A stretch of DNA of 38,614 bases from Candidatus Bathyarchaeia archaeon. GTDB lineage: Archaea; Thermoproteota; Bathyarchaeia; TCS64. This document shows positions 1,438-14,117 of this stretch, piece by piece. The translations under genes were made by a program, and so were the position numbers. Location: contig DASWLJ010000138.1 in the NCBI GenBank assembly GCA_036396185.1, positions 1 through 38,614 on the forward strand. The letters are read 5' to 3'. The first letter of the stretch is position 1; each line of letters opens with the position of its first letter. The notes under the pieces were generated by a model that saw only the letters and a list, made by a program, of their open reading frames with translations, had not been told where the DNA came from and did not search any database.

Positions 1438-1539
1438 AATAGGTTCCTCAACCTAGAAGGGGGCATTCATTAAAAAGAATATTCCTCGCGCCGGCTTATC
1501 TCGAAATTCATTGCTAGAGCGCGCGAGTTTTTTTTTCAA

Positions 1540-1814
1540 TCATTCTAATAATAAAAAAACTCGAAAATTAATGCACCTGACCTTCGCCAGGGCCTCCTCC
1601 GAGTAGTCCCGCACGTATCTGACGAAGAGGTTGCCGCCGGCCTTACCCCCATCTTCTCGTTGACAAGAACCACATTGTGCTTCTTTCTTATCCTAGTCTC
1701 CTGTAAGTGGGTGAGGGCCGGCCCATCAGTCCGTTCTATCAATATGTAGTCGTTGTAGACGCCGGCCCTCTGAGCGGATCCCTGGTAGTTTCCCTCTTTT
1801 TTTCGATTTATCAT
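1540..1814 (-). pseudogene. Small ORF broken by a frameshift at a homopolymer (C5 on + strand, 1646-1650); function unknown
   Basis: Track ORF 1545-1814 reads MINRKKEG...HNVVLVNEKMG and then becomes Arg/Ser/Thr-rich nonsense. Shifting one frame at the G5 run gives protein-like ...GGKAGGNLFVRYVRDYSEEALAKVRCINFRVFLLLE*, ending at 1540. It could equally be a sequencing error. Confidence 0.25.
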
Positions 1815-1916
1815 TTTAAACCGAAACTATTTAAGCTCAGGGTCAAACCTGACACCCGGCCAAAACACGTGAACGAGTGAAAAAACGCCGAAAATAGAGG
1901 AGTTCTGTAGGAGAAC

Positions 1917-2231
1917 ATGAGCGAATTTGTACCCTGGATCGAGCAGAGAAACGCCGAGAACTGGGTGCTAATGAACTCAAACTTAATAAAGGCTCTAAGG
2001 GAAGCCTCAAGAACGGTAACAGAGACCTTCAACCTCTTGAAGAACCAGGGATACACAACTGAGTCGAGCATACGTAAGTCTCTAAAGACCGGAGAGAAGC
2101 AAGGAATCATATACAGAACAGCAAACCATCCGGGGCATTATGCACAATTTAATTTAACCGATTTCGGCATAGAACTGTACAACACAGTGGTTCAAGGAGG
2201 ACTAACTTCCAGACCTGGGGTTACTCCATGA
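1917..2231 (+). CDS. Small hypothetical protein, possible winged-helix DNA-binding fold
   Basis: 104-aa ORF with an ATG start and an A/T box (aaaata, 1891-1896) about 21-26 nt upstream. The segment TVTETFNLLKNQGYTTESSIRKSLKTGEKQGIIYR looks like helix-turn-helix plus wing. No family recognised. Confidence 0.45.
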   Translation: MSEFVPWIEQRNAENWVLMNSNLIKALREASRTVTETFNLLKNQGYTTESSIRKSLKTGEKQGIIYRTANHPGHYAQFNLTDFGIELYNTVVQGGLTSRPGVTP

Positions 2232-2621
2232 AACACGCTACACACCTCCTAAATGGTGGAATTAATAGAATTTTAAGAGGAAGACGAAGAGTAACCTTGA
2301 CCTCATCTAAATGTCTTTGAGAGCCTTCCTTGTCTCCTCGGGGAAGTCCCGGAGCAGGTTCCTGATGTCCACCCCGCCGAAGACCCGCGGAAAAGCAGCG
2401 GACACAGGCCGACGGCAGTCGCCGCCTAAAGACCCGGAGAAAAGCCTCCAAACCGTGAAACAAGCCCGAAAACGGGGAACCGTGACGGCGACGACTACAC
2501 CCCTCCCCTCCACCCGTGCACGCGCAGACAAATACACACACACAAACGCCCCATACCTCCCGCAAAAACCAGGCAATGGGATCTTCACAATTCAGCCTAA
2601 AAAAGAGAAAGAGTGAAAAAA

Positions 2622-2906
2622 CTAGTCCTTCGCCAACAGTATCGCTATGTTGCTTACGTTCCTGGGGCTACCGTCCTCACTCTCCAACTGCTCAGTCCCT
2701 ATGCTGATGTCCTTCACATGAAGATCCGAGACGAACTGGTTCCTGACCACCTCAGCCACGTCCACCGCCTTGCTGATGGCGCGGCCCCTGGCCATGAGGG
2801 TGACCTCGCTTCCCTCGCTCTTCAGGGACGTCATCACCGCTAAGCAGTAGGCCATAACGGGTTTTCTGCCGATATAGACAACGTTACTCTGCTCCACTTG
2901 TATCAC
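2622..2906 (-). CDS. albA: Alba (Sso10b) DNA/RNA-binding chromatin protein
   Basis: 94 aa with a near-canonical Alba sequence (NVVYIGRKPVMAYCLAVMT...VTLMARGRAISKAVDVAEVVRNQF...IGTEQL). GTG start at 2906. Confidence 0.95.
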   Translation of the reverse strand: MIQVEQSNVVYIGRKPVMAYCLAVMTSLKSEGSEVTLMARGRAISKAVDVAEVVRNQFVSDLHVKDISIGTEQLESEDGSPRNVSNIAILLAKD

Positions 2907-3065
2907 CGTGTGTTACCGTGTGTTCGGTACCCCAAACTCTGTCAAAACCAGTATTAATCTTTTAGGAGTTGTTTCACACATGAATATGCATGCTCTCAGC
3001 GTACCGTTGATATTTACACGAATAAACATCCATATTCACTATAAGAACGCATCAAAAGAATTCCT

Positions 3066-6017
3066 TTGAATTGTAGGTTGAAGCGAGGAGAATCAGAGAA
3101 CAAAAAACTTCTACTGACCGCACTCATGGCACTAACAGTATTAAGTCACGCAACTTTATGGCCGTTTAACATTCTGGGCACTAGAGCGGTACTACATGAA
3201 CCTGCACTCAACAGCTCCATCGGCAACGTAGGCGACACAGTTCTCGTCCAAGGCGGCCCAGGCGAAGTAGGAGGCGGCCTACCCGTCTACCTATACTGGG
3301 ATAATGTCCAGCAGTGGAACGGCTACGAGGGACTGCTCAACGCAACTAGATCAGATCCAGACGGAACATACGCCATGAGCTTCACCGTACCGGAAGTCTG
3401 CGCAGGAAAACACACACTCTGGGTTAAAAATAGCTACTCAGGGGAAACCACTTCCGCATCCTTCCATGTGGCGCCCTCAGTCTCACTGGAGAAAATATAC
3501 ATCACCCAAGAAGACAGCGTCAGTTTCTCTGGAACAGGTTTCGGTTCACGAAACAAGGTTACATTCATCGTGACTGATGTCAATCTGGGTGGAGTACCAG
3601 GATGGCCTACCACATCGGATGTCAAGCAAATAGGTGAAGGCAACGGAGTAAAAACAGAGTGGACCTCTGTCCTATCTAACCACCCAGTCAAGCCAGGGTC
3701 AATATCGGTAGACGTAGACGGATCCTCGATCCTTGACCAAGGGTATGGCACACTTAAAGGTGAAGCTGGGCAGGGTACAATCGATTATGTGTCAGGTGAA
3801 GTGAGAATAGTCCTCCATGAGCCGCCTGCAAGCGGGCTCTCCGTCTCCCTAAGCTACGAGTACTTTGAGGAAAGCGCCGAACTTACTCTTCTCTCCGAGC
3901 TGATCACATCAACCGAAAAAGGAAAAATCGTTGGAGCAGCGTCTTTCCCAGATCTACCTTACGGAAACTACACTTTCACCGCCATAGACTCTGAAAACAA
4001 CACCGCCTCCAACCTGATCCACATCTCACCTAAGCTAATCCTTAGCAAGACTAGAGTAGACGTCGGCGACATACTCCATGTAAAAGGCCAGGGCTTCACA
4101 CTCGAAAGTAAAATCCTTCAAGGCCACGTCATGGTTTACAGTAACATCTGGAACGGTTCAAGCTGCTCCATCTATAACTATCCAACTGGAGGTGTACCTG
4201 TGGACACAGAAAACGAATTCTCTCTCTACCTGATAGTTCCTCAAGTGCCTCAACCAGGTGGCCAATACTTACTCAGTGTTAAAGACTCCGCAGGGCTAGT
4301 GAGTCAAGGCAGTTTACTGATCGAAAAGACAGCTTACATCGAAGTAAAGGTTGATTCCAGTAGCGATAAACCTAAAATCACTGTCTTTGGTAAGAACTAC
4401 CCTAACATCCAAGGAAGGCAGGTGTCTCTCGCACTTAAGAGCGTTGAAGAAGATCAGAAAATCAACATAGGTTATGCCACCACAGACTATAATGGATACT
4501 TTCAACAATCCTTCACATATAGTAACTCCGCATACTTCCAGTACGAACTTGTAGCCCAAGCCGACAACATTCGATGTTGTTACATGATACAGATTTCCCA
4601 TCTAAACGTCGAGCTTTCACAAGCCTACGGTGCACCCGGAGACACTATCAAGATAACCGGAACAGGGTTCACAGCAGGGGGGTCTTGGTCAGCAACCTTG
4701 AACAGCGTCATCGTCGTGGATCAGGAAGACGGTGTAGTTAATAATCGAGGGCAATTGAAGATCAACTCACGGACCCCCCAGTTCTCAATACCTCAGATAT
4801 CCCAAGGCAACTATACACTCATCATCCAAGACACAGTAACAGGGTGGAAACAGCTACTTGATTTCACAGTGCTCGACGATACGCCAAACTGGAAGACGGA
4901 GCTCCCTCAACCTGTATTCACTTCCCCCAGTGTTCTCAATGAGGAGCAAACAATCGAACTAAATGGATCAGCTTCGATTGATCCCGATGGGGTGATTTTA
5001 TCTTACCACTGGGACTTCGGGGATGGCTCAACATCACAGCAGATACGTCCTATCCACGTCTATCATCAAGACGGTGTCTACTCGATAACACTGTCCGTAA
5101 GAGACAATAATGGCGCAACCGCTCAAACCACAAAGGAAATACAAGTAAATGACATAGACCCCGCGCCCGACTTCAAATCATCAAAAACCAGTGGCTGCTG
5201 TCCTCTAACAATCAGGTTCACCGACGAAACCATACACCATGATAACATAACTCTCTGGAGCTGGAGCTTCGGTGATGGCGGAACCAGTACAGAGCAAAAC
5301 CCATACCATACGTATTCGAGACCCGGTGTTTATACGGTTACGCTCAAGGTTGTTGAGGACGATGGAGATGAATCAACCATAACCAAGACCAACTACATCA
5401 ATGTTTATGGCGACGATAACCAACCTCCAACAAACCATAAAGCCGTTGCTTGGGCAATAGGCAACACCATTACAGTATACGCAGTGATCAGTGACAACTC
5501 CAATATAGCGTCAGCAAAATTACTTGTACCGGGTTACCCAGACGTCACATTGGAGGAACATCCAACTAAGATGGGTCTATACTCGGCGTCCTTCACGGTA
5601 GCAGAAAAGATCAAGGAAGTATGGCTTTATGTAAAGGACTACAATGGAAACCAGGCTGAGGCCAACGTCCAAGTAGACGGCGAAGAGCCTGTAGGAACTA
5701 CATCACTAAGTTTATCGGTAGGCTGGAGCACTGTGAGCATCTCTGGCAAAGGCTCAGCGTCACTCATTGAACTTAGAAAACAATTGGAAAACTTCAGACA
5801 AATATATACAGTCTACTCAGAAGTGTTCCCTGAGCAAAAAACTGTGGTTCCTAAAATAACGGCAGTCTGGACGTATGATGAGTACCGTGGCTATCTCTGC
5901 TGGGACCCTGAAACCGGGCAAGGTGAATTCGATCAACTGGTCGGAGGAAAACAGTACCTGTTTCACCTTGAAGGTGAACCATCCACGGTACTAAATGTCA
6001 TTCTAGTCTATAGGTAG
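3066..6017 (+). CDS. Large secreted multi-Ig-domain surface protein (IPT/TIG-like modules plus two PKD domains)
   Basis: 983-aa ORF with a TTG start. N-terminal hydrophobic signal (KKLLLTALMALTVLSHA). Repeated Ig-like modules with GDxhxhxGxGF signatures (SVSFSGTGFGS, GDILHVKGQGFT, GDTIKITGTGFTAGG). Two PKD signatures (YHWDFGDGSTS...GVYSITLSVRDNNG; WSWSFGDGGTS...GVYTVTLKVVEDDG). No C-terminal TM anchor. Confidence 0.85.
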   Translation: MNCRLKRGESENKKLLLTALMALTVLSHATLWPFNILGTRAVLHEPALNSSIGNVGDTVLVQGGPGEVGGGLPVYLYWDNVQQWNGYEGLLNATRSDPDGTYAMSFTVPEVCAGKHTLWVKNSYSGETTSASFHVAPSVSLEKIYITQEDSVSFSGTGFGSRNKVTFIVTDVNLGGVPGWPTTSDVKQIGEGNGVKTEWTSVLSNHPVKPGSISVDVDGSSILDQGYGTLKGEAGQGTIDYVSGEVRIVLHEPPASGLSVSLSYEYFEESAELTLLSELITSTEKGKIVGAASFPDLPYGNYTFTAIDSENNTASNLIHISPKLILSKTRVDVGDILHVKGQGFTLESKILQGHVMVYSNIWNGSSCSIYNYPTGGVPVDTENEFSLYLIVPQVPQPGGQYLLSVKDSAGLVSQGSLLIEKTAYIEVKVDSSSDKPKITVFGKNYPNIQGRQVSLALKSVEEDQKINIGYATTDYNGYFQQSFTYSNSAYFQYELVAQADNIRCCYMIQISHLNVELSQAYGAPGDTIKITGTGFTAGGSWSATLNSVIVVDQEDGVVNNRGQLKINSRTPQFSIPQISQGNYTLIIQDTVTGWKQLLDFTVLDDTPNWKTELPQPVFTSPSVLNEEQTIELNGSASIDPDGVILSYHWDFGDGSTSQQIRPIHVYHQDGVYSITLSVRDNNGATAQTTKEIQVNDIDPAPDFKSSKTSGCCPLTIRFTDETIHHDNITLWSWSFGDGGTSTEQNPYHTYSRPGVYTVTLKVVEDDGDESTITKTNYINVYGDDNQPPTNHKAVAWAIGNTITVYAVISDNSNIASAKLLVPGYPDVTLEEHPTKMGLYSASFTVAEKIKEVWLYVKDYNGNQAEANVQVDGEEPVGTTSLSLSVGWSTVSISGKGSASLIELRKQLENFRQIYTVYSEVFPEQKTVVPKITAVWTYDEYRGYLCWDPETGQGEFDQLVGGKQYLFHLEGEPSTVLNVILVYR

Positions 6018-6072
6018 CCTCACCATACATAACGATATACTGTTAACTAGCCGTCATTAACGTGGAATAAAC

Positions 6073-7461
6073 TTGAGACAGCGTAGATACAGTAATCAGA
6101 TGCTACTGTTTTCTATGTTGTTATTTACGTCCAATTTCGTTATTAGTGCCGGCGCCTTATCCCCTCTTCCACACGCCATCAGTGGCCGGATACTTTCTCC
6201 GGAAGGAACCATACCTGATTACCTATTACTGGATGCTAGAATAAATGGGACAATTTATGCGTCCACCTACGTCAAAGACGGCGAGTTCGGTGTAAACCCC
6301 TCTTTCAAAGTTCCTTCAGACGATCCAACCACAGAAACCGTTGAGGGAGGACGGCTAGGTGACCTAATCCTGCTCTTTCTTGATGGAGAGAGAGTCGGTG
6401 AACTCGTATTCGAGCCGGGCCGGATAAACAGGCTCATACTTGAAACAGACAAGATCATGGAACAGAAGCCCAGAGTACTCTCGGGAGGACCCTACTATGG
6501 AGTCGCCGGCTACACAGTGAAACTCGATAGTGCAGTAGTGTTCAACCCCGAAGATAACGAGCCTACCTACAGCTGGGACCTGGGAGATGGGTCAACTTCA
6601 AGTCAACTCGAGCCCTCACACAAATATGCACATCCTGGTGACTACATAGTTAATTTTAAACTGGAGGACTCTTCAGGGGTGGTTGACTCAGTTAAAACCA
6701 TTGTCCATGTAGCTACCCTCCCTGACCCAATTTATGGGCGTATTCACCCTGTCCCCATTATTGGTGAAAGCGAATCCATCGAAGACCAAGAAACAGGTCT
6801 CAGTTTCCATCTAAATAGCATCGGTGCTGCGAGTCTATCCTTACTGAGCTACATGGAGCCGTTTCTTCAAAAAGGCAAACCTCCTATTATCAATGGTGCG
6901 TATAGTTTAGGTTTCAGCAATTTGGATGAAATCGCGTGGCCAATATATGTGGAGCGGCGCATGGATGAGACTGTGCCAGGGGCCGGTTTCTATACTTGGA
7001 GTGAAGGCGTCTGGAAGAGAGTTTCATGCACTGGGATAGCCCCAAGTAAAGAAATTGTTTGGGCGTGGCTCACCAAGCAGGAATTAGAGGAAGGCTTATT
7101 ATTGCTGGGAGCCGACCCCGGCAATTATGTTGAGGTCGTATCGGTGGAAACAGTGGTTTTACCTGACAACGTTTACGAGTTTAAGGTAAACATGCTTAGT
7201 AGAGGCTATGAAGGTAACTACACCCTCAACATTGGTCTAGACGGTGAGATATTGGAGCGAAGAAGCACCACGTTTTCAAACGGTGAAACTCGTTCCGAGT
7301 CCTTTGAATATGGTCTAGAGACTGGAACTCATCTGTTGGATGTTAACGGCTTAGAGTATAGCGTCAAAGTTGATTCGCTGATTAAACCTTTCCAGACAAT
7401 TTTATTTAGCATAATACCCATGGCTTCCCTTGTCCTCTTCGTTATGAAGAAACTATTCTAG
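6073..7461 (+). CDS. Secreted PKD-domain protein with C-terminal transmembrane anchor
   Basis: 462 aa with a TTG start. Signal-like N-terminus (MLLFSMLLFTSNFVISAGA). One PKD signature (YSWDLGDGSTS...PGDYIVNFKLEDSSG). A CARDB-like beta module lies near the C-terminus, followed by a terminal hydrophobic helix and basic tail (ILFSIIPMASLVLFVMKKLF). Confidence 0.8.
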   Translation: MRQRRYSNQMLLFSMLLFTSNFVISAGALSPLPHAISGRILSPEGTIPDYLLLDARINGTIYASTYVKDGEFGVNPSFKVPSDDPTTETVEGGRLGDLILLFLDGERVGELVFEPGRINRLILETDKIMEQKPRVLSGGPYYGVAGYTVKLDSAVVFNPEDNEPTYSWDLGDGSTSSQLEPSHKYAHPGDYIVNFKLEDSSGVVDSVKTIVHVATLPDPIYGRIHPVPIIGESESIEDQETGLSFHLNSIGAASLSLLSYMEPFLQKGKPPIINGAYSLGFSNLDEIAWPIYVERRMDETVPGAGFYTWSEGVWKRVSCTGIAPSKEIVWAWLTKQELEEGLLLLGADPGNYVEVVSVETVVLPDNVYEFKVNMLSRGYEGNYTLNIGLDGEILERRSTTFSNGETRSESFEYGLETGTHLLDVNGLEYSVKVDSLIKPFQTILFSIIPMASLVLFVMKKLF

Positions 7462-7554
7462 GCGCGTGCGATTTTATGGCTCCTTTTATTGTTAAGTTCG
7501 TTAAAAAATAATAAGATTTAAACACGCCTCGGTTGTCATGATATCTGATTACCA

Positions 7555-8100
7555 ATGTCAATGGACGACAGTACGCTAGTTTTTACTATCGATGTTAAAA
7601 AACTCGTAGCTATATTTTTTCTAGCCTCAATTACTGTAGTTACCCTTTACACGTACACAACGGCTCTTTTAGCTTTCATTGCCCCCTATCCTGGAGATTA
7701 CCCCCTAGATGTAACGTCTTCAGGAAGCTATACAACAGACAATACAGCGGAGTCCAGCTTCACAAGAGGAGAAACTGTTAGGATAAAAGCTACCCTTGAA
7801 AAGGGAACCGATTACTGGACTTCGTATCCAGACTATACATCCTACACATCCTTTTCGGGGACTACCAGTTACCGTGTATTCATAACCATTCTAGATTTAA
7901 ACAATAAACCAGTGAAATTTTATACTTCAACCGGTGCACTGTCACCTGGAGAGAGTAAAAACTATCAGACCGATATGCCTACTACAAGTAGCTTTACATC
8001 CGGTACTTACACAGCACAGGTTCTGGCCTGGAGCACGGGGCTGCCTGACGGAGTGTCTGAGACACCGACCGTGACGGAGTTCACGTTCACGATATCATGA
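7555..8100 (+). CDS. Small N-terminally anchored/secreted Ser/Thr/Tyr-rich beta-sandwich-like protein
   Basis: 181 aa. N-terminal TM or signal-anchor (LVAIFFLASITVVTLYTYTTALLAFI), then a beta-rich region (FTRGETVRIKATLEKG...YRVFITILDLNNKPVKF...GTYTAQVLAWS). Ends 12 nt before the next gene. No family recognised. Confidence 0.65.
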   Translation: MSMDDSTLVFTIDVKKLVAIFFLASITVVTLYTYTTALLAFIAPYPGDYPLDVTSSGSYTTDNTAESSFTRGETVRIKATLEKGTDYWTSYPDYTSYTSFSGTTSYRVFITILDLNNKPVKFYTSTGALSPGESKNYQTDMPTTSSFTSGTYTAQVLAWSTGLPDGVSETPTVTEFTFTIS

Positions 8101-8112
8101 GGTTGATGAAAG

Positions 8113-9993
8113 ATGAATAAAAAGTATCTTTTAGGACTCGTTCTCGGGATGCTAGTATGTAGCCTTGTACCTGTTCACGCTGTTGGTATCACTGTGTCTA
8201 CAGACGCCGCGGAGTATGAGCGCGGAGACACCATCAATATCCAGGTTGGCGGAATAACTCAAACCGGGGAATTCCTGTACCTCCAATTCAAAGACCCTAG
8301 TAACAACATTAAATGGGTCAAACAATACAGTATCAGTGCAACAGGTACATGGTACATCAACTTTATTATTCCTTCAGATTGGAACGGCGGAACGTGGACC
8401 ATTCACGTTAAAGAAGGAGCCTCGACAGCTGTATCAACCACATTCGAGCTGAATGTTCCTGTTGTATCACCTGCAGCAGGTAGTAGAGTGATAATTCCAA
8501 CCCCAGATGACATAGAGGACATGACTGACCTCGGGGCAGCCAACACGTTAGCTGAACTCGATCCTGAGGACAGCGCAGACATATTATCAGAAGTTACCCT
8601 TGAGAAAGCTGTTGACATTCTAGAACTCATGGACCCAACACTTGTCACACAGATACTTAGCGAGATGGATACCGATACTGCCACAGCTATTCTGGAACTT
8701 ATGAACAAGAGCAAAGCAGTTGAAGCTATCGCGGGTCTAAGTACAGATTCGGCTGTATCAATACTTGAGGACATGTCTTCATCGGATGTCGCTGGCCTGA
8801 TGGAGGAGGCCGTTAAGAGCGGCGACGTAGACCAGTTCTCAGAGATAATAAACGAGATGGATGAGGACACTGCGGCGGGCATCCTGCTTGATATGGACCC
8901 CGAGTCCGGAGCGGACTTGGTAGTTGGCATGGCACAGAACAACCTTAATGAGGCCGCTAAACGCGTCGAGGCGGCAGTCAAGAAGCGCCTTGGAGAGACT
9001 GACCCTGCAAAGGCGCAGGAAATCATCGATAAAATTGCTGCAACACTGGAGAACGCGGACACCGACACACTTGTCGACATCTTCATAGAGATAGCCAACC
9101 TACCGGCCACGCCATCCACAGTCGCAACCGTGCTGGAGGCCATGGAGCTAACCAAGACCCTGGACGTCGTATCCGCCTGGGTAAACACGGGAAGCCTTGA
9201 GGAGCTAGCCGAGGTATTCAGCTACATGAGCGACGGCTTCTTGGACACCCTGTGGCCAGCCATGGCCTCAGCCGAGAGAAACGCCCTATTCCCGTATCTT
9301 GACTCCGTCACTGTTGCCAAGCTGCCGCAGATGGGCGAGTTCCAAGTCAGTGAGCTATCAGTCTCACCGGCGAGCGTTCAGGCAGGCGCGGTCGTGACCA
9401 TAAGCGTCAAGGTAAGCAACACAGGGGCAGAAGCGGCATCCTACACAGCCGTCCTGAAGGTGGATGGATCAACGGAGGCCACCAAGACGGTCACGATAAA
9501 CGCGGGGCAGTCCACAACGGTATCCTGGACGACCTCCAAGACCACCGCCAAGACATACAGCGTCTCCGTCGACGGCTTAACGGGAAGCTTCACCGTGCAG
9601 GCACCCCCGCAGCCCGCCGCGTTCACCTACTCTAACCTACTGGTGAACCCATCTACGGTGGAGACAGGTAGCCCTGTAACCGTCACAGTCGCGGTATCCA
9701 ACACGGGGGGACAAAGCGGGGCAACCACCGTGGAGCTCAAGGTTAACGGCGCCATAGCGGACACAAAGTCGGTGACAATAAACGCCGGTTCTAGCACCAC
9801 AGCCACATTCACGGTGACCAAGAGCACCGCAGGAACCTACACCATAGGAGTCGGAAGCCTCACAGGCAGCTTCACGGTCCAGGCGCCCCCACAGCCACCA
9901 CAGGACAACACGATGATGTACATCCTAGCCATAGGCGTAGTGCTGGTGGCCGCAATAGGTTACTACTTATACAGCCAAAGAAAAAGCCAGTAA
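8113..9993 (+). CDS. Membrane-anchored surface protein: N-terminal Ig-like domain, MgtE_N-like acidic helical repeats, two CARDB-like domains, C-terminal TM
   Basis: 626 aa. Signal peptide (LLGLVLGMLVCSLVPVHA). The central ~250 aa are Asp/Glu-rich helical repeats resembling the MgtE N-terminal/FliG-like repeat (DPEDSADILSEVTLEKAVDILELMDPTLVTQILSEMDTDTATAILELM...). Two ~90-aa CARDB-like repeats both end in LTGSFTVQAPPQP. C-terminal TM plus basic tail (MMYILAIGVVLVAAIGYYLYSQRKSQ). Confidence 0.85.
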   Translation: MNKKYLLGLVLGMLVCSLVPVHAVGITVSTDAAEYERGDTINIQVGGITQTGEFLYLQFKDPSNNIKWVKQYSISATGTWYINFIIPSDWNGGTWTIHVKEGASTAVSTTFELNVPVVSPAAGSRVIIPTPDDIEDMTDLGAANTLAELDPEDSADILSEVTLEKAVDILELMDPTLVTQILSEMDTDTATAILELMNKSKAVEAIAGLSTDSAVSILEDMSSSDVAGLMEEAVKSGDVDQFSEIINEMDEDTAAGILLDMDPESGADLVVGMAQNNLNEAAKRVEAAVKKRLGETDPAKAQEIIDKIAATLENADTDTLVDIFIEIANLPATPSTVATVLEAMELTKTLDVVSAWVNTGSLEELAEVFSYMSDGFLDTLWPAMASAERNALFPYLDSVTVAKLPQMGEFQVSELSVSPASVQAGAVVTISVKVSNTGAEAASYTAVLKVDGSTEATKTVTINAGQSTTVSWTTSKTTAKTYSVSVDGLTGSFTVQAPPQPAAFTYSNLLVNPSTVETGSPVTVTVAVSNTGGQSGATTVELKVNGAIADTKSVTINAGSSTTATFTVTKSTAGTYTIGVGSLTGSFTVQAPPQPPQDNTMMYILAIGVVLVAAIGYYLYSQRKSQ

Positions 9994-10073
9994 CCTTTTC
10001 TTATATTTATCTACTTAATCAAGATCGTATAGGAAATATTTTCTCCACAGCAAAGAAAGAATAGGGTTCTAAC

Positions 10074-10313
10074 CTAAACCATCTTACCTGGCTTATCTTT
10101 CTTCTCGATGATGGCCTGCATCAGCTTGATCTCCCGCTCTAGAAAGTTCTTCTTCTCCTTGAGCTCCTCAAGCTTCTTACCCATGTCAACGAGCTCGTGC
10201 TCCCGCCTCATAACCTCGTAGAACTCCGGGTGGCCGTACTTCAGGTGAAAATCCATCTGCTTCTTCTCAAGCCTCTCCAGACCACAGAAAGGGCAAATGT
10301 AGGCGCGTTCCAC
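10074..10313 (-). CDS. Small C2H2 zinc-finger protein with C-terminal coiled coil
   Basis: 79 aa. YICPFCGLERLEKKQMDFHLKYGHPEF has the classical C-X2-C-X12-H-X4-H spacing. The remainder is a Glu/Lys-rich helix (KKLEELKEKKNFLEREIKLMQAIIEKK). Confidence 0.7.
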   Translation of the reverse strand: MERAYICPFCGLERLEKKQMDFHLKYGHPEFYEVMRREHELVDMGKKLEELKEKKNFLEREIKLMQAIIEKKDKPGKMV

Positions 10314-10343
10314 CGATACTCCTCACCTATTCCTCGGTTTGCC

Positions 10344-10355
10344 GTATATAATAAA
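10344..10355 (-). promoter_or_regulatory. TATA-like box for the zinc-finger gene
   Basis: tatataataaat lies 31-42 nt upstream of the start codon at 10313 on the minus strand. The spacing fits an archaeal TATA box with a short or absent leader. Confidence 0.35.
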
Positions 10356-10481
10356 TCTTTCAAGCCGACCTTACCCCTGATCAACTTTATAGTAGGAGTA
10401 AAAACAGAGCTTGGTTACGTACTTTTAGTCTAGACCTAGATTCCACGAACCTTTTAAGACTACCTGACGCCGACTGACTCA

Positions 10482-10715
10482 ATGGAGATCAAAAACAGAT
10501 CAGTGATCTTCAAACCGGAAGATCTGAACGTGGTGGACATGGCTACTGGTGGCGGGGTCGCTGACAACTACATCCAAATGGCCAGCGACATCATCTTCCA
10601 CAAAGGCGTAGAGGATGACCAGCCAACGATCCACATCATTGAGCCCCAGTTCTCCGGAGCGAAGTTCATCGATCCCTGGCGAAGAGACAACGTGGGCCCC
10701 CGGTTCACGCCATAG
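10482..10715 (+). CDS. Hypothetical protein (77 aa)
   Basis: ATG start and strong C/G third-position bias like the confident genes. The overlapping minus-strand ORF 10500-10850 translates to a less protein-like sequence. No family recognised. Confidence 0.4.
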   Translation: MEIKNRSVIFKPEDLNVVDMATGGGVADNYIQMASDIIFHKGVEDDQPTIHIIEPQFSGAKFIDPWRRDNVGPRFTP

Positions 10716-10927
10716 ATCTGGCGTCATCCGGCTCATTGGCCCATTGGTTAGTATGCTTACCGTATTAGATACATCGTTGATAATCGATGAGTTTTGATAT
10801 CGGGCTAAGCCTCCTCCTTCACCAGAGATGGGCACATCCCGGTAATCCATTAAATATAGACGATGAGTAGAACTGTTTTTAATAATAGGGTGTTTCAGCC
10901 ACTAAAGTGAGTGTTACTAAGTTCGAG

Positions 10928-11107
10928 CTATATTACAACTGCCGCCCCTATCATGAATCCGAGCCACAGCGATAGATGGTATAATTTAATCACCATTTTT
11001 CTGAAATCCGTCATCTTATCATCCTTCGCTTTCCAAGTGTCTTCGATTGGTCCGTCCCTCATAGTGTATATCTCTGGCCAAAGTTGGCCCATGGGCGTCT
11101 TATTCAT
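10928..11107 (-). CDS. Small (59 aa) protein with C-terminal TM helix, below the ORF-track length cutoff
   Basis: My manual reverse-strand translation gives MNKTPMGQLWPEIYTMRDGPIEDTWKAKDDKMTDFRKMVIKLYHLSLWLGFMIGAAVVI*. It is more protein-like than the opposing track ORF 10911-11123. Confidence 0.3.
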   Translation of the reverse strand: MNKTPMGQLWPEIYTMRDGPIEDTWKAKDDKMTDFRKMVIKLYHLSLWLGFMIGAAVVI

Positions 11108-11201
11108 GCACTATACCGCTTGATATGATTTATTTTAAGAACACAGTGGAATCCTCTGGAACTATTTATTATAGTAGATGACTGATAAAAAACGAGGGTG
11201 G

Positions 11202-11966
11202 TTACCCCATCTGAAGTTTTACTCTGAAGCTTAAGAGATCGTTATATGTGGCGATGTCCGTGCCAGATAGGTCTTCAATGTTTGAAACAAGAAGGTAGTA
11301 GGTGCCGGGTCCAGAGTTGAAGGGAGCCTCTATGGAGTACTGGGTTGACCCTGACACTGTGATGGTTGGCGAGGTTTTTCCGTTTTTCCAGTAGTCGCTC
11401 CACACAAGCAGCTGTATTCGTCCAGTGAACGGGCTCCCGTTAAGGTGCCTGATGTTAACTGTTCCCGTGATCGGGATGTTATACGGGTACGTGTTCGAGG
11501 TCACGGTGAGGTTCACTCGTAGGTTGTTTACCACGAAATAAGTCCACGACGGGACCCTCAACTCGTTGTACTTCTCCATGAGTTTCACGTACTCGATTGA
11601 TAGGTCGTGGTTCTCGTCTACTAGGATCTGGTTCGTTAGTTGGAGCTCCTCCAGCTCATTTGACATATCCTGGTAGCTCTCCTCAAGCTCCTCGTACTCT
11701 GAGAGGGCTATACTGTTGCCTGCCAGGTCGTTGTAGCTCTGTGTTACCTGCGTGAGCTCGCCTAAGGCTTCGGTGTAGTTGGCCTGGAGTGCCCCGAGCT
11801 GGGTCTGCAGCGATGCTACCAGGCTTGTCTTCTGCTCAAGGTCGGATGTTAAACCGTTGATCTTTGGGTTGGTGAGAGTGTAGTTGACATAGAAACCTGA
11901 ACCAAGGCCCACTATGAGAGCCAGGGTCACAAGGTTTGTGGTGCTGAACAGCTTTTTTCCAGCCAT
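11202..11966 (-). CDS. Membrane-anchored coiled-coil protein with C-terminal beta-sandwich-like domain
   Basis: The likely start is MAGKKLFS (ATG 11966); the track ORF extends to 12017. One N-terminal TM (LVTLALIVGLGSGFYV), ~100 aa of heptad-like Leu/Glu/Gln repeats, then a beta-rich domain (NLRVNLTVTS...GTYYLLVSNIEDLSG). Confidence 0.75.
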   Translation of the reverse strand: MAGKKLFSTTNLVTLALIVGLGSGFYVNYTLTNPKINGLTSDLEQKTSLVASLQTQLGALQANYTEALGELTQVTQSYNDLAGNSIALSEYEELEESYQDMSNELEELQLTNQILVDENHDLSIEYVKLMEKYNELRVPSWTYFVVNNLRVNLTVTSNTYPYNIPITGTVNIRHLNGSPFTGRIQLLVWSDYWKNGKTSPTITVSGSTQYSIEAPFNSGPGTYYLLVSNIEDLSGTDIATYNDLLSFRVKLQMG

Positions 11967-12141
11967 ATAATCCTCACAAGGTGAGAGAAGGGGCGCGCTA
12001 TTAAAAATGATGCTCACCTCTGCTAGGTATCTCTGCTATGTTGTAGTGAAACGGAGCCGTGGTCGGGTTCTACGTTCACTCCCGCATACTTTCAGAAGCT
12101 GCGTAACTACTTTAAACGAAGCACCATATAGTCGTATCGAG

Positions 12142-12342
12142 ATGGGCGCCTTATCCTTCGTGGGTTTTCTGGCTGTTATGATGGGCTTCTCTCTGCATGT
12201 GTTAGGCGGAGGAGCATACTCGAAGGCCAGGTTCAGCCACGGCGACACTCTCGTCGTAGGACAGGCGTGGTTCGTGGTCCTGGTTCTCGGTCTTCTCATG
12301 ATGGCTGTGGACGCCTACATGTTCTCGGGCGGGTTTCAGTAA
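12142..12342 (+). CDS. Small two-TM membrane protein (hypothetical)
   Basis: From the internal ATG: MGALSFVGFLAVMMGFSLHVLGGG...AWFVVLVLGLLMMAVDAYMF. The upstream part of track ORF 12007-12342 is Arg-rich and not protein-like. Confidence 0.35.
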   Translation: MGALSFVGFLAVMMGFSLHVLGGGAYSKARFSHGDTLVVGQAWFVVLVLGLLMMAVDAYMFSGGFQ

Positions 12343-12383
12343 GCTGGACAGCTGCTAAATATATCCCAAGCCTATCATTCTCC

Positions 12384-14117
12384 ATGGTTTTTACTACTCG
12401 GCCGGTCATCATGGGGACCCACGGCGTTGTGGCTAGCACCCATTACCTGGCCACGGTCGAGGGTCTTCAGGTCCTGAGGGAAGGTGGGGGTGTGGTGGAC
12501 GCTGGAGCCGCCATGTGGTTCACGCTGTCTCTGCTTGAGCCCCACCTGGTGGGCGTCGCGGGGGAGGTACCCATCCTGCTGTACCTTTCAGACGAAGAAC
12601 GCGTCATCGCGGTCAACGGGCAGGGCCCGGCGCCGGCCGCCGCCACCATCGAGTGGTTCAAGGACCACGGGTATCCCATGATCCCGGAGGACGGTTTCAC
12701 GCCAGCCGTGGTCCCGGGGGCCTTCCACGCCTGGATGAGGACCATGGACGAGTACGGGTCCTTGAGCCTCAGGAGAGTCCTCGAACCGGCCATCAGGCTG
12801 GCCAAGGCAGGTTTCCCCGTCTACCCGACGCTCGCAGGCTTCCTTGAGCGCCTCAAGGACAGATACCAGGCGGAGTGGCCCAGCTCAGCCAGGGTCTATC
12901 TCCCGGGCGGAGCCCCACCCGTGGTCGGCCAAGTGATAAATAACCCTGATTGGTCGAGGACCTTCAGCGGGCTCCTCAAGGAGACCAGCCGGGACGCCAA
13001 GACGGGGAGGTCTCACGGGTTCGACGCGGCCATCAAGTACTTCTATGATGGGCCCATAGCCGAGGCCATCATAGACTACACGCAGAGCTTCAGGTGCAGA
13101 GACGTCTACGGGATGGAGAACCACGGGCTGCTAACTAGAGAGGACCTATCCGGCTACAGTTCGAGGTTCGAGAAGCCCGTGTCCGTCAACTACAGGGGCC
13201 TCGACGTCTATAAGTGTGGGCCGTGGACCCAGGGGCCGGTGCTTCTGCAGATGCTTAACCTGCTGGAGGGCTACGACCTGAAGTCCATGGGCCACAACAG
13301 CGTGGAGTACCTTCACACAATAATTGAGGCCGCGAAGCTCGCCTTCGCTGACAGGGAGCAGTACTACGCGGACCCCAACTTCGTGGACGTGCCCCTCGGC
13401 AGGCTTCTATCCAAGAGTTACGCCGACGAGCGTCGAACCCTCATAGACCCAGATGAGGCGTCGATGATGCTTAGGCCTGGGGGTGTGCCACCAATCGAGC
13501 TGAAGGAGAGCGGGGAGAAGCCCTTCCACGAGGGCGACACGGTGCACCTTGAGGCCGTGGACCGCGAGGGAAACATGTTGTCGGCTACGCCCAGCGGCGG
13601 ATGGATCAGGACCAGCCCCTTGGTTCCCGGCCTAGGCTTCCCAGTGGGCACCCGAGGCCAGTTCTTCCACCTGGACCCAAGCCATGTGGAGCGGCTGGAG
13701 CCGGGTAAAAAGCCCAGCACCACCCTGACCCCGAGCCTCGTGTTGAGGGACGGCAGGCCCTACATGGTGTTCGGTACGCCGGGGGGAGACCAGCAGGACC
13801 AGTGGACCCTACAGCTGTTCCTCAACCATGTGGATTTCGGGATGAACGTGCAGGAGGCTATCGACGCCCAGACGGTTCACACCAGCAGCTTCCCTGGCAG
13901 CTTCTGGCCTCATGCTGTGAGGCCAGGCGAGGTGAGCGTGGAGCCCGGTATACCCGTCGCCGTGGTGGAGGCGCTCAAGAAGAAGGGCCACAGAGTGGTG
14001 ATGAGCAGGCCCTGGAGCCATGGCAGGTGCCTGGCGATAAGGTTCGACGCCGAGACGGGGGTCATCCACGGAGGGGCTTCGCCCAGGACGGGTAATCCTT
14101 ACGCCATGGGCTGGTGA
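12384..14117 (+). CDS. ggt: Gamma-glutamyltranspeptidase family (Ntn hydrolase)
   Basis: 577 aa from ATG 12384; the track ORF start at 12267 adds a non-protein-like extension. GGT hallmarks: THGVVASTHYLAT, nucleophile region EGDTVHLEAVDREGNMLSATPSGG, C-terminal FGTPGGDQQDQ. Confidence 0.93.
   Translation: MVFTTRPVIMGTHGVVASTHYLATVEGLQVLREGGGVVDAGAAMWFTLSLLEPHLVGVAGEVPILLYLSDEERVIAVNGQGPAPAAATIEWFKDHGYPMIPEDGFTPAVVPGAFHAWMRTMDEYGSLSLRRVLEPAIRLAKAGFPVYPTLAGFLERLKDRYQAEWPSSARVYLPGGAPPVVGQVINNPDWSRTFSGLLKETSRDAKTGRSHGFDAAIKYFYDGPIAEAIIDYTQSFRCRDVYGMENHGLLTREDLSGYSSRFEKPVSVNYRGLDVYKCGPWTQGPVLLQMLNLLEGYDLKSMGHNSVEYLHTIIEAAKLAFADREQYYADPNFVDVPLGRLLSKSYADERRTLIDPDEASMMLRPGGVPPIELKESGEKPFHEGDTVHLEAVDREGNMLSATPSGGWIRTSPLVPGLGFPVGTRGQFFHLDPSHVERLEPGKKPSTTLTPSLVLRDGRPYMVFGTPGGDQQDQWTLQLFLNHVDFGMNVQEAIDAQTVHTSSFPGSFWPHAVRPGEVSVEPGIPVAVVEALKKKGHRVVMSRPWSHGRCLAIRFDAETGVIHGGASPRTGNPYAMGW

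Follow-up and report, generated by a model that had tools for sequence, protein, structure and literature searches.

A putative hypervariable surface-gene cassette of two dyads in a fixed chromosomal slot of Bathyarchaeia

Introduction

Do four adjacent genes for exported proteins, set in a stretch of atypically low GC content, encode a single assembled surface structure of a bathyarchaeon, and how did they come to lie where they are? The question is raised by contig DASWLJ010000138.1 of a Candidatus Bathyarchaeia archaeon (assembly GCA_036396185.1), whose 38,614 nucleotides constitute the window analyzed here and which belongs to a metagenome-assembled genome (MAG) of 2.42 Mb in 388 contigs. 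The four genes, designated g1 to g4, are located between a gene for an Alba protein (alba) on the left and a gene for a 79-aa zinc-finger protein (zn79) on the right. Few archaea are as abundant in sediments as Bathyarchaeia, yet to our knowledge neither their cell envelope nor the targets of their viruses have been described in molecular terms.

An initial annotation, made from the letters alone, had treated g1 to g4 as one unit specifying a candidate Ig-fold envelope or adhesion complex, with one free giant subunit and three differently anchored partners, and had suggested that the block might be horizontally acquired. The reading favored here, to which we assign a probability of roughly 0.55, is that positions ~2969–10060 represent one allele of a hypervariable surface-gene cassette that occupies a fixed slot between alba and zn79 in one genus of Bathyarchaeia, comprises two dyads (g1–g2 and g3–g4), and has been exchanged by recombination. 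In what follows, G numbers denote the genomes of relatives, L numbers denote loci or contigs, and C numbers denote contigs.

A divergent, probably replaced segment with sharp edges

The segment was delimited by blastn and sliding-window comparison with G013, the nearest relative found. Alignment by blastn gave 84% DNA identity over 2277–2968 and 92% over 10057–12551, with no alignment in between; overall, the flanks are 92–95% identical, and locally the values for the alba side range from 84 to 100% up to ~2968. At the left edge (windows spanning 2949–3090), identity fell from 0.92–0.98 through 0.60 to 0.34–0.40, while at the right edge it was 0.37 over 9991–10076 and 0.89–0.99 beyond. The replaced segment, of ~7.1 kb, is thus bounded at ~2968 and ~10060–10076. 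Its left edge falls within the alba–g1 intergenic region, so that the upstream region of alba is retained and that of g1 belongs to the cassette. At the protein level, alba, zn79, and a 271-aa coiled-coil protein to the right are 96%, 92%, and 90% identical to their G013 counterparts, with values of 35% for g1 and 31% for g2. Because G013 and G007, a more distant pair, still share 55% identity in g1 and 60% in g2, the 7.1-kb cassette stands out from the genomic background in which it lies. The closest g1 outside this population is only 40% identical and resides in the lower-GC genome G017.

The composition of the segment is likewise atypical. Total GC content is 46.5% over 3066–8900, bearing out the lower value first suggested by hand counts, and 48.2% over 3066–9993, compared with 59.6% for the genome; values as low as that of the block are reached in only ~1% of the 7-kb windows of this genome. 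The nearby flanks (1500–3000 and 10000–12300) are also lowish in total GC (0.44–0.53), yet their genes have near-normal GC content at third codon positions (GC3), making GC3 the discriminating measure. By this measure the difference is sharper: GC3 is 0.49 for g1, 0.47 for g2, 0.41 for g3, and 0.60 for g4, against a genome mean of 0.785 and values of 0.78, 0.82, and 0.78 for the flanking alba, M28 peptidase, and ggt genes. Only 21 of the 865 long open reading frames (ORFs) of the genome have a GC3 below 0.55. Long ORFs below this value on contigs C234, C318, C51, and C29 of the same genome encode signal peptides and/or C-terminal transmembrane (TM) helices, and it seems that the genes for surface proteins in this genome are generally atypical in composition. 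In other genomes, orthologous cassettes have GC3 values of 0.61–0.79, close to those of their hosts, and low GC therefore marks this allele in particular rather than the gene family as a whole.

Two other explanations were considered and rejected. A chimera of assembly or binning as the cause of the compositional shift is excluded by the reproduction of both junctions in two other samples (L041 and L042) at 99.7–99.9% identity. A provirus or integrative element is contradicted by the lack of a tRNA gene or repeats at the edges, by the absence of an integrase among the ORFs, and by the conservation of the slot itself. In keeping with the sharp edges and the missing integrase, the cassette would have been acquired through allelic replacement, with homologous recombination taking place in the conserved flanks and the donor perhaps being an unsampled relative of lower GC content. 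The view of a compositionally foreign block is upheld at the level of GC3, while the picture of an inserted island gives way to that of a site conserved in position and exchanged in content.

Substitution rates are consistent with this interpretation. The ratio of nonsynonymous to synonymous substitution rates (dN/dS) is 0.2–0.5 in g1 and g2 versus 0.04–0.2 in the flanks, from which it follows that both are real genes under purifying selection, albeit laxer than in the flanks. Since dS is raised as well, the divergence points to exchange between lineages and not to fast protein evolution alone. Exchange can also affect a single gene: between L013 and L032, g1, g2, and g4 are 90%, 85%, and 81% identical, whereas g3 is only 44% identical with dS saturated, indicating that g3 alone was exchanged in one lineage.

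A conserved slot and two separable dyads

The order alba(-)/g1 g2 g3 g4/zn79(-) recurs in the genus relatives G024, G002, and G004 (in the last of which g3 is missing and g4 truncated), and the same cassette order is found on the independent metagenome contigs L029–L034; the check on synteny to which the initial annotation had tied its proposal was therefore positive. On a short contig of G045, g2, g3, and g4 are in the same order. G013 and G007 carry alba/g1 g2/zn79 without g3–g4, and in G017, g1 and g2 are followed by a long relative of g4 and a long relative of g2. In all complete loci, alba and zn79 bracket the cassette, and zn79 adjoins its last gene. Conservation of the four-gene order across many independent loci argues for a functional link rather than a collection of unrelated exoproteins. 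In lower-GC members of the genus (L015–L017, from G006, G023, and G016), alba is flanked not by g1–g2 but by genes for a ~403-aa exported, anchored protein and for one of 203 aa whose N-terminus resembles that of type IV pilins.

Within the cassette, the genes are not tied together equally. g2 lies directly downstream of the g1 orthologue in every locus whose contig continues, and the pairwise identities of the two move together (93/93, 78/77, 59/57, 55/60, and 40/35% for g1/g2). Similarly, g3 and g4 are neighbors wherever both are found. This second pair also occurs without g1–g2, namely in G016, in G005, and on two contigs where it adjoins IS66 or IS605/TnpB genes. In 13 of the 14 loci where it can be read, the downstream neighbor of g3 is a C-tail-anchored protein resembling g4 or g2; outside these loci, some Bathyarchaeia have a g2-like PKD/CARDB protein after g3 in place of the g4-like one. 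The spacer between g2 and g3 probably comprises a terminator and a second promoter, to judge from its base runs, and a transcription unit of its own for g3–g4 fits the separate occurrence of this pair elsewhere. Judged by gene order and sequence, the cassette is thus composed of two separable dyads rather than one four-gene unit, contrary to the original proposal. Of the suggested assembly, the functional link stands by virtue of the conserved order; a single free subunit serving three partners is more conjectural, and the data tie g1 specifically to g2.

A natural fusion protein from the representative library, P0192 (734 aa), begins with a helix and sandwich of the g3 type, continues with PKD, the g2 core region, and a set of three CARDB domains like those of g4, and ends in a TM helix, indicating that g3, g2, and g4 modules work in one surface context. 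P0192 would be anchored at both ends. A second recurrent pair, in which a long g4 relative lies beside a long g2 relative, was observed in G007:C43 (L023), G017:C103 (L009), G008:C4 (L019), and G004:C5. The former protein is ~790–910 aa long and contains MgtE_N, CARDB, and a TM helix (with a TIGR04279 match shown for the G007 member), and the latter, of ~740–800 aa, contains PKD, the g2 core region, CARDB, and a TM helix.

The g1–g2 dyad and a self-anchored paralogue

The AlphaFold model of g1 (pLDDT 70) is all-β, a chain of ~10 β-sandwich domains followed by a small C-terminal domain. The description of g1 as an unanchored protein with two PKD domains proved correct; its IPT-like modules, by comparison, found no Pfam TIG match among those listed for g1 at E <= 0.01, although five Ig-like sandwiches are modelled in residues 46–602, and precomputed PF01833 matches exist in some g1 orthologues. 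Foldseek searches with the g1 model returned generic multi-Ig proteins only, with TM scores below 0.2, and the search for whole-protein homologues of g1 was dominated by bacterial PKD proteins. No clear gradient from outside to inside was apparent in the per-domain conservation of g1.

Residues 4–606 of g1 are 28–30% identical to a family of paralogues of 825–970 aa that are self-anchored, their Ig-like domains being followed by an Ala-rich helical stalk and a TM helix at the C-terminus. The paralogue has its own conserved neighborhood, has a low GC3, and evolves fast (35–46% identity within the genus). It was detected in 29 of the 45 genomes sampled from the family, in all 4 from a sister family, and in 11 of the 32 from another. 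In the present genome, the paralogue (~945 aa) is split between C180:2-1384(-) and C193:24-1721(+), whose ends overlap by ~110 codons with few amino-acid differences; strain variation therefore apparently broke the assembly inside the gene. No g2-like gene was found beside the self-anchored paralogue at any locus examined (L024, L025, and the C180 and C193 loci of this genome among them). The best-supported account of these similarities is that g1 is a derived, anchorless paralogue of a probable wall protein, g1 lacking the stalk and TM helix and having gained two PKD domains and the C-terminal domain.

That the anchorless form is always accompanied by g2, whereas the self-anchored form has no g2-like neighbor, is the main argument for a tethering role: g2 is probably the membrane tether of g1. 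The predicted architecture of g2, a PKD protein with a C-terminal TM helix, was confirmed. Its core region reappears in the longer g2 relatives and in P0192, while a word-based search with the C-terminal half of g2 retrieved only the query itself.

The arrangement resembles SlaA/SlaB of Sulfolobales and the two-protein S-layers of Nitrososphaeria, in which a large anchorless exported protein is likewise encoded upstream of a ~400–500-aa protein with a C-terminal TM helix, both being mainly of β-sandwich fold. It differs from SlaA/SlaB in having no sequence homology to them, in the accessory status of g1–g2 within the genus, and in the PKD domain and novel core region of g2. Could g1–g2 nevertheless be a true two-component S-layer, with g1 as the lattice and g2 as the stalk, so that cells having the self-anchored paralogue would possess a second wall layer or an alternative one? 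In its favor, g1 and the ~460-aa C-tail-anchored g2 always occur together in the same operon, the N-terminal 600 residues of g1 are common to the ~950-aa protein with helical stalk and TM helix, that paralogue is widespread, and archaeal S-layer proteins are typically chains of Ig-like domains. A cultivated bathyarchaeon has an S-layer plus an outer sheath (PMC10477458), and a survey preprint predicts Bathyarchaeota S-layer proteins of 791–1055 aa and lists two-protein S-layers in related Thermoproteota (10.1101/2024.05.28.596244). Yet neither SlaA, SlaB, nor any S-layer family in Pfam or NCBIfam is matched by sequence (PKD being the sole match of the pair there, and PDB sequence matches likewise being confined to PKD domains), g1–g2 was detected in just about one third of the genomes of the genus, its foreign codon usage is unexpected for a very highly expressed gene, and the structural matches of g1 are non-discriminating. 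We therefore consider a g1–g2 lattice of this kind unlikely. The self-anchored paralogue is a plausible S-layer candidate and a better one than g1; it matches the candidates of the preprint in size class and multi-Ig architecture, the comparison being by description only.

The g3–g4 dyad

As first proposed, g3 is an N-terminally anchored protein of β fold. Its AlphaFold model (pLDDT 75) comprises a TM helix (14–42) and one β-sandwich. In Foldseek, carbohydrate-binding domains of Wzt rank first (E 7e-7, TM ~0.6), followed by RhoGDI, A2M-MG, and CARDB. No match to g3 was found in Pfam or NCBIfam. At E <= 1e-10, 1.84 billion proteins yielded 74 representative clusters, which makes for a small family. 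A FlaF/FlaG-like identity was not supported: the layout, an N-terminal helix and a sandwich, is alike, but neither protein is among the top 50 Foldseek matches, and there is no Pfam match. Nor was a type IV pilin-like identity: the N-terminus (MS..D...V.TIDAKRL, then the TM helix) has no class III cleavage site (Gly/Ala at -1) in any homologue. Genes of the g3 family followed by one for an anchored Ig-domain protein were also seen on L037 (QMZU01000088.1, labelled Aenigmatarchaeota MAG B50_G15) and L040 (JANZKA010000095.1, Candidatus Culexarchaeum nevadense), reflecting either lateral spread or mis-binning.

For g4, the C-terminal anchor and the CARDB domains were correctly recognized, but the protein is not composed of Ig folds throughout: its central 290 residues form an acidic helical repeat resembling MgtE_N and FliG. 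MgtE_N matches g4 in three stretches over residues ~149–400 at 3.1e-19, with 69.8 bits against a gathering cut-off of 25.9, and the region aligns to the MgtE structure 2oux; the initial annotation does not mention this domain. The helical region (~121–410) is comparable to the MgtE N-terminal domain and the ARM-like repeats of FliG (PF03448, PF14841) and, acidic like the Mg2+-sensing domain, is rich in Asp and Glu (20%, pI 4.05). No CBS domain and no MgtE membrane domain were found in g4. In MgtE and FliG this domain is cytoplasmic. Unlike there, the g4 domain is flanked on both sides by Ig-like domains, lacks a transporter membrane domain, and is predicted to be extracellular because a signal peptide precedes it and a C-terminal TM helix with basic tail follows, with CARDB alongside. 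Cation binding by this acidic domain is a guess.

The g4 family consists of only ~28 clusters, all from Bathyarchaeia-type sources, with long forms that carry a TIGR04279 domain. The notion that g3 and the N-terminus of g4 represent a split version of this domain was rejected, as no similarity is detectable. Sorting by an archaeosortase (PGF-CTERM) was discarded as well, since no PGF, PEF, or VPXXXP motif is present at the C-termini of g2, g4, or their orthologues. The N-terminal sandwich of g4 is 34–38% identical to its orthologues, compared with 53–58% for the C-terminal half, and g4 may be a recombinant mosaic.

The Wzt matches raise the alternative that the four proteins are non-lattice adhesins or glycan-binding proteins for particles, polymers, or partner cells, varying with the targets of the niche. 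Adhesins commonly contain PKD and CARDB domains, as do the polysaccharide-binding parts of exoenzymes, and the PDB sequence matches of the PKD domains of the cassette proteins are indeed collagenases and an endoglucanase; the top Foldseek match of g1 is the grappling-hook protein GhpA, and the pattern of presence and absence is that of accessory genes. Against this, the Wzt match is to a generic sandwich (TM ~0.5–0.6, 12–14% identity), no enzymatic or recognized lectin domain is present, and the constant pairing of an anchorless protein with one anchored partner would be left without explanation. Such an adhesive or glycan-binding function for the four proteins thus appears improbable to us.

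Features of the locus

The features of the locus are compiled in Table 1. The reading frames first listed, and the gaps of 55, 93, and 12 nt between them, were recovered exactly. Signal-peptide and TM assignments derive from hydropathy and inspection of the termini. Together with the Pfam domains, they agree with the earlier view that all four products are exported or anchored: Sec-type signal peptides start g1, g2, and g4 (their c-regions reading SHA, AGA, and VHA, respectively), g2 and g4 end in a TM helix and basic tail, g1 has no TM helix, and g3 starts with a signal anchor. Pfam assigns two PKD domains to g1 (614–780), one to g2, none of its families to g3, and two CARDB domains plus MgtE_N to g4. 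No characterized archaeal surface system is matched in Pfam or NCBIfam, as the initial annotation had anticipated.

Table 1. Features of the cassette and its immediate flanks (positions refer to the window)
Feature	Position	Strand	Description
alba (94 aa)	2622..2906	-	Left flank of cassette, divergent from g1; Pfam Alba 2.1e-17
Left edge of replaced segment	2969..3065	+	Holds g1 upstream region; drop of identity to G013 in sliding windows
TATA-like TATAAG	3040-3045		~21-26 nt before g1 start codon; read from sequence, putative promoter element
g1	3066..6017	+	983 aa: signal peptide, ~5 Ig-like sandwiches (46-602), two PKD (614-781), one further sandwich, small C-terminal domain (929-983)
g2	6073..7461	+	462 aa: signal peptide, PKD (133-211), g2 core (~215-335, WPIYVER...WAW), C-terminal TM + basic tail
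g2–g3 spacer (93 nt)	7462..7554	+	Oligo-T runs 7471-7493, then A/T-rich TATA-like element 7503-7523 (sequence inspection)
g3	7555..8100	+	181-aa type-II membrane protein: 13-residue cytoplasmic N-terminus (conserved), TM 14-42, extracellular beta-sandwich 51-180
g4	8113..9993	+	626 aa: signal peptide, MG2-like sandwich (~25-115), acidic MgtE_N/FliG-like helical repeat (~121-410), two CARDB (~416-590), C-terminal TM + basic tail
Right edge of replaced segment	9994..10060	+	T-rich, terminator-like
zn79 (79 aa)	10074..10313	-	C2H2 zinc-finger/coiled-coil; right flank of cassette

An Rfam search detected no RNA genes in or beside the cassette. A promoter and terminator scan with bacterial models, applied here to an archaeal host, gave the same counts as in shuffled sequence. 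Outside the replaced segment, the 271-aa protein noted above (11202–12017, minus strand) starts with a TM helix, continues with a coiled coil, and ends in a β-sandwich, and is a candidate for a further envelope component. Sequence to the left of alba (1–2595) varies too, and this second variable junction abuts the stop codon of alba.

Discussion

Taken as an exchanged allele of a surface-gene cassette, the locus can be given a tentative mechanism. The secreted, anchorless g1 would be held to the membrane by the tail-anchored g2, after the logic of SlaA/SlaB, and the N-terminally anchored g3 together with the C-tail-anchored g4 would form a second, oppositely anchored envelope component. Selection for variability would probably be exerted by agents that recognize the cell surface, such as viruses. 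We infer that the cassette is a variable envelope module, and a lattice, a looser canopy, or adhesive fibers are all possible forms for g1–g2.

Several observations weigh against this interpretation or complicate it. No donor lineage was found. The left flank (84%) is less similar to G013 than the right (92%); L042 is 99.7% identical from 2596 onward and unrelated to the left of this point, and G013 differs left of ~2277. The unequal flank identity and the variable junction left of alba imply a regional history more complex than one exchange. As far as can be judged from the flanks themselves, their identities (left 84%, right 92%) follow no clear gradient; in the work on islands of this kind (PMC4033161), a peak of SNPs at the boundaries, in the form of synonymous changes in the bordering genes, serves as evidence. 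The interpretation also does not explain the course of GC3 along g4 (0.47, 0.41, 0.58, 0.71, 0.75, 0.69, 0.62), with 0.41–0.47 in the first 200 codons and 0.69–0.75 in codons 300–600. As to a role in the wall, full g1–g2 orthologues were detected in ~11 of the 32 genomes of the genus, so that the pair is accessory and cannot be a universal wall; the genome does not share its codon usage; there is no excess of sequons for N-glycosylation; and the S-layer proteins of H. volcanii and N. maritimus rank just 21st and 37th among the Foldseek matches of g1, a result that does not discriminate.

The remaining alternative, that no complex exists and independent surface proteins have merely gathered in a recombination-prone, low-constraint region beside alba, draws on the strain-variable region left of alba, the other exported proteins and pilin-like gene near alba in distant genus members, the free shuffling of domains among these proteins, and the exchange of g3 alone in one lineage, but it is rather improbable given that the strict g1–g2 and near-strict g3–g4 adjacency persists at 30–50% sequence identity, that the anchorless form has a partner where the self-anchored form has none, and that a fusion protein joins g3, g2, and g4 modules.

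An exchanged surface cassette has precedents in the replacement flexible genomic islands that encode exposed structures, including O-antigen and S-layer cassettes, the surface-glycoprotein island of Haloquadratum walsbyi, and the S-layer cassette switching of Clostridioides difficile (Lopez-Perez et al., 2014; PMC4033161). As in these islands, the position is fixed and the flanks are conserved while divergent versions of the same predicted role are exchanged, the products are exposed (here predicted from signal peptides, anchors, and Ig-like domains), and the edges are sharp, with no integrase, att-like repeats, or tRNA. The locus departs from them in the distance involved, as the known cases concern strains at >98% average nucleotide identity, whereas here species of a MAG genus with flanks ~92% identical are compared. 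Furthermore, the families are uncharacterized, and the incoming allele differs in gene number (four versus two) and GC3. Surface-gene replacement islands are thus already well known; what is new is the Bathyarchaeia setting, the uncharacterized families, the rule that an anchorless paralogue comes with a tether, and the extracellular MgtE_N-like domain.

For the biology of the group, the locus clearly exemplifies the replacement of a surface cassette, in an archaeal class of which hardly any members have been cultivated, and supplies specific candidates for components of the envelope, among them the self-anchored paralogue with its wider distribution. It also reveals two uncharacterized protein families, g3 and the g2 core region, alongside the unusual extracellular MgtE_N-like domain. 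Because assemblies break at such loci and their composition is atypical, they are easily lost from MAGs or taken for contamination. A bolder and considerably less probable extension is that the wall in this genus is built partly from exchangeable two-gene kits, with g1 as an S-layer-type canopy on the g2 tether and g3–g4, through its acidic domain, as a divalent-cation-binding spacer of a pseudo-periplasm, the kits being swapped between species by homologous recombination as a defense against viruses. If true, no bathyarchaeial envelope would have been described in molecular terms before this one, and the MgtE/FliG fold would here be used outside the cell for the first time.

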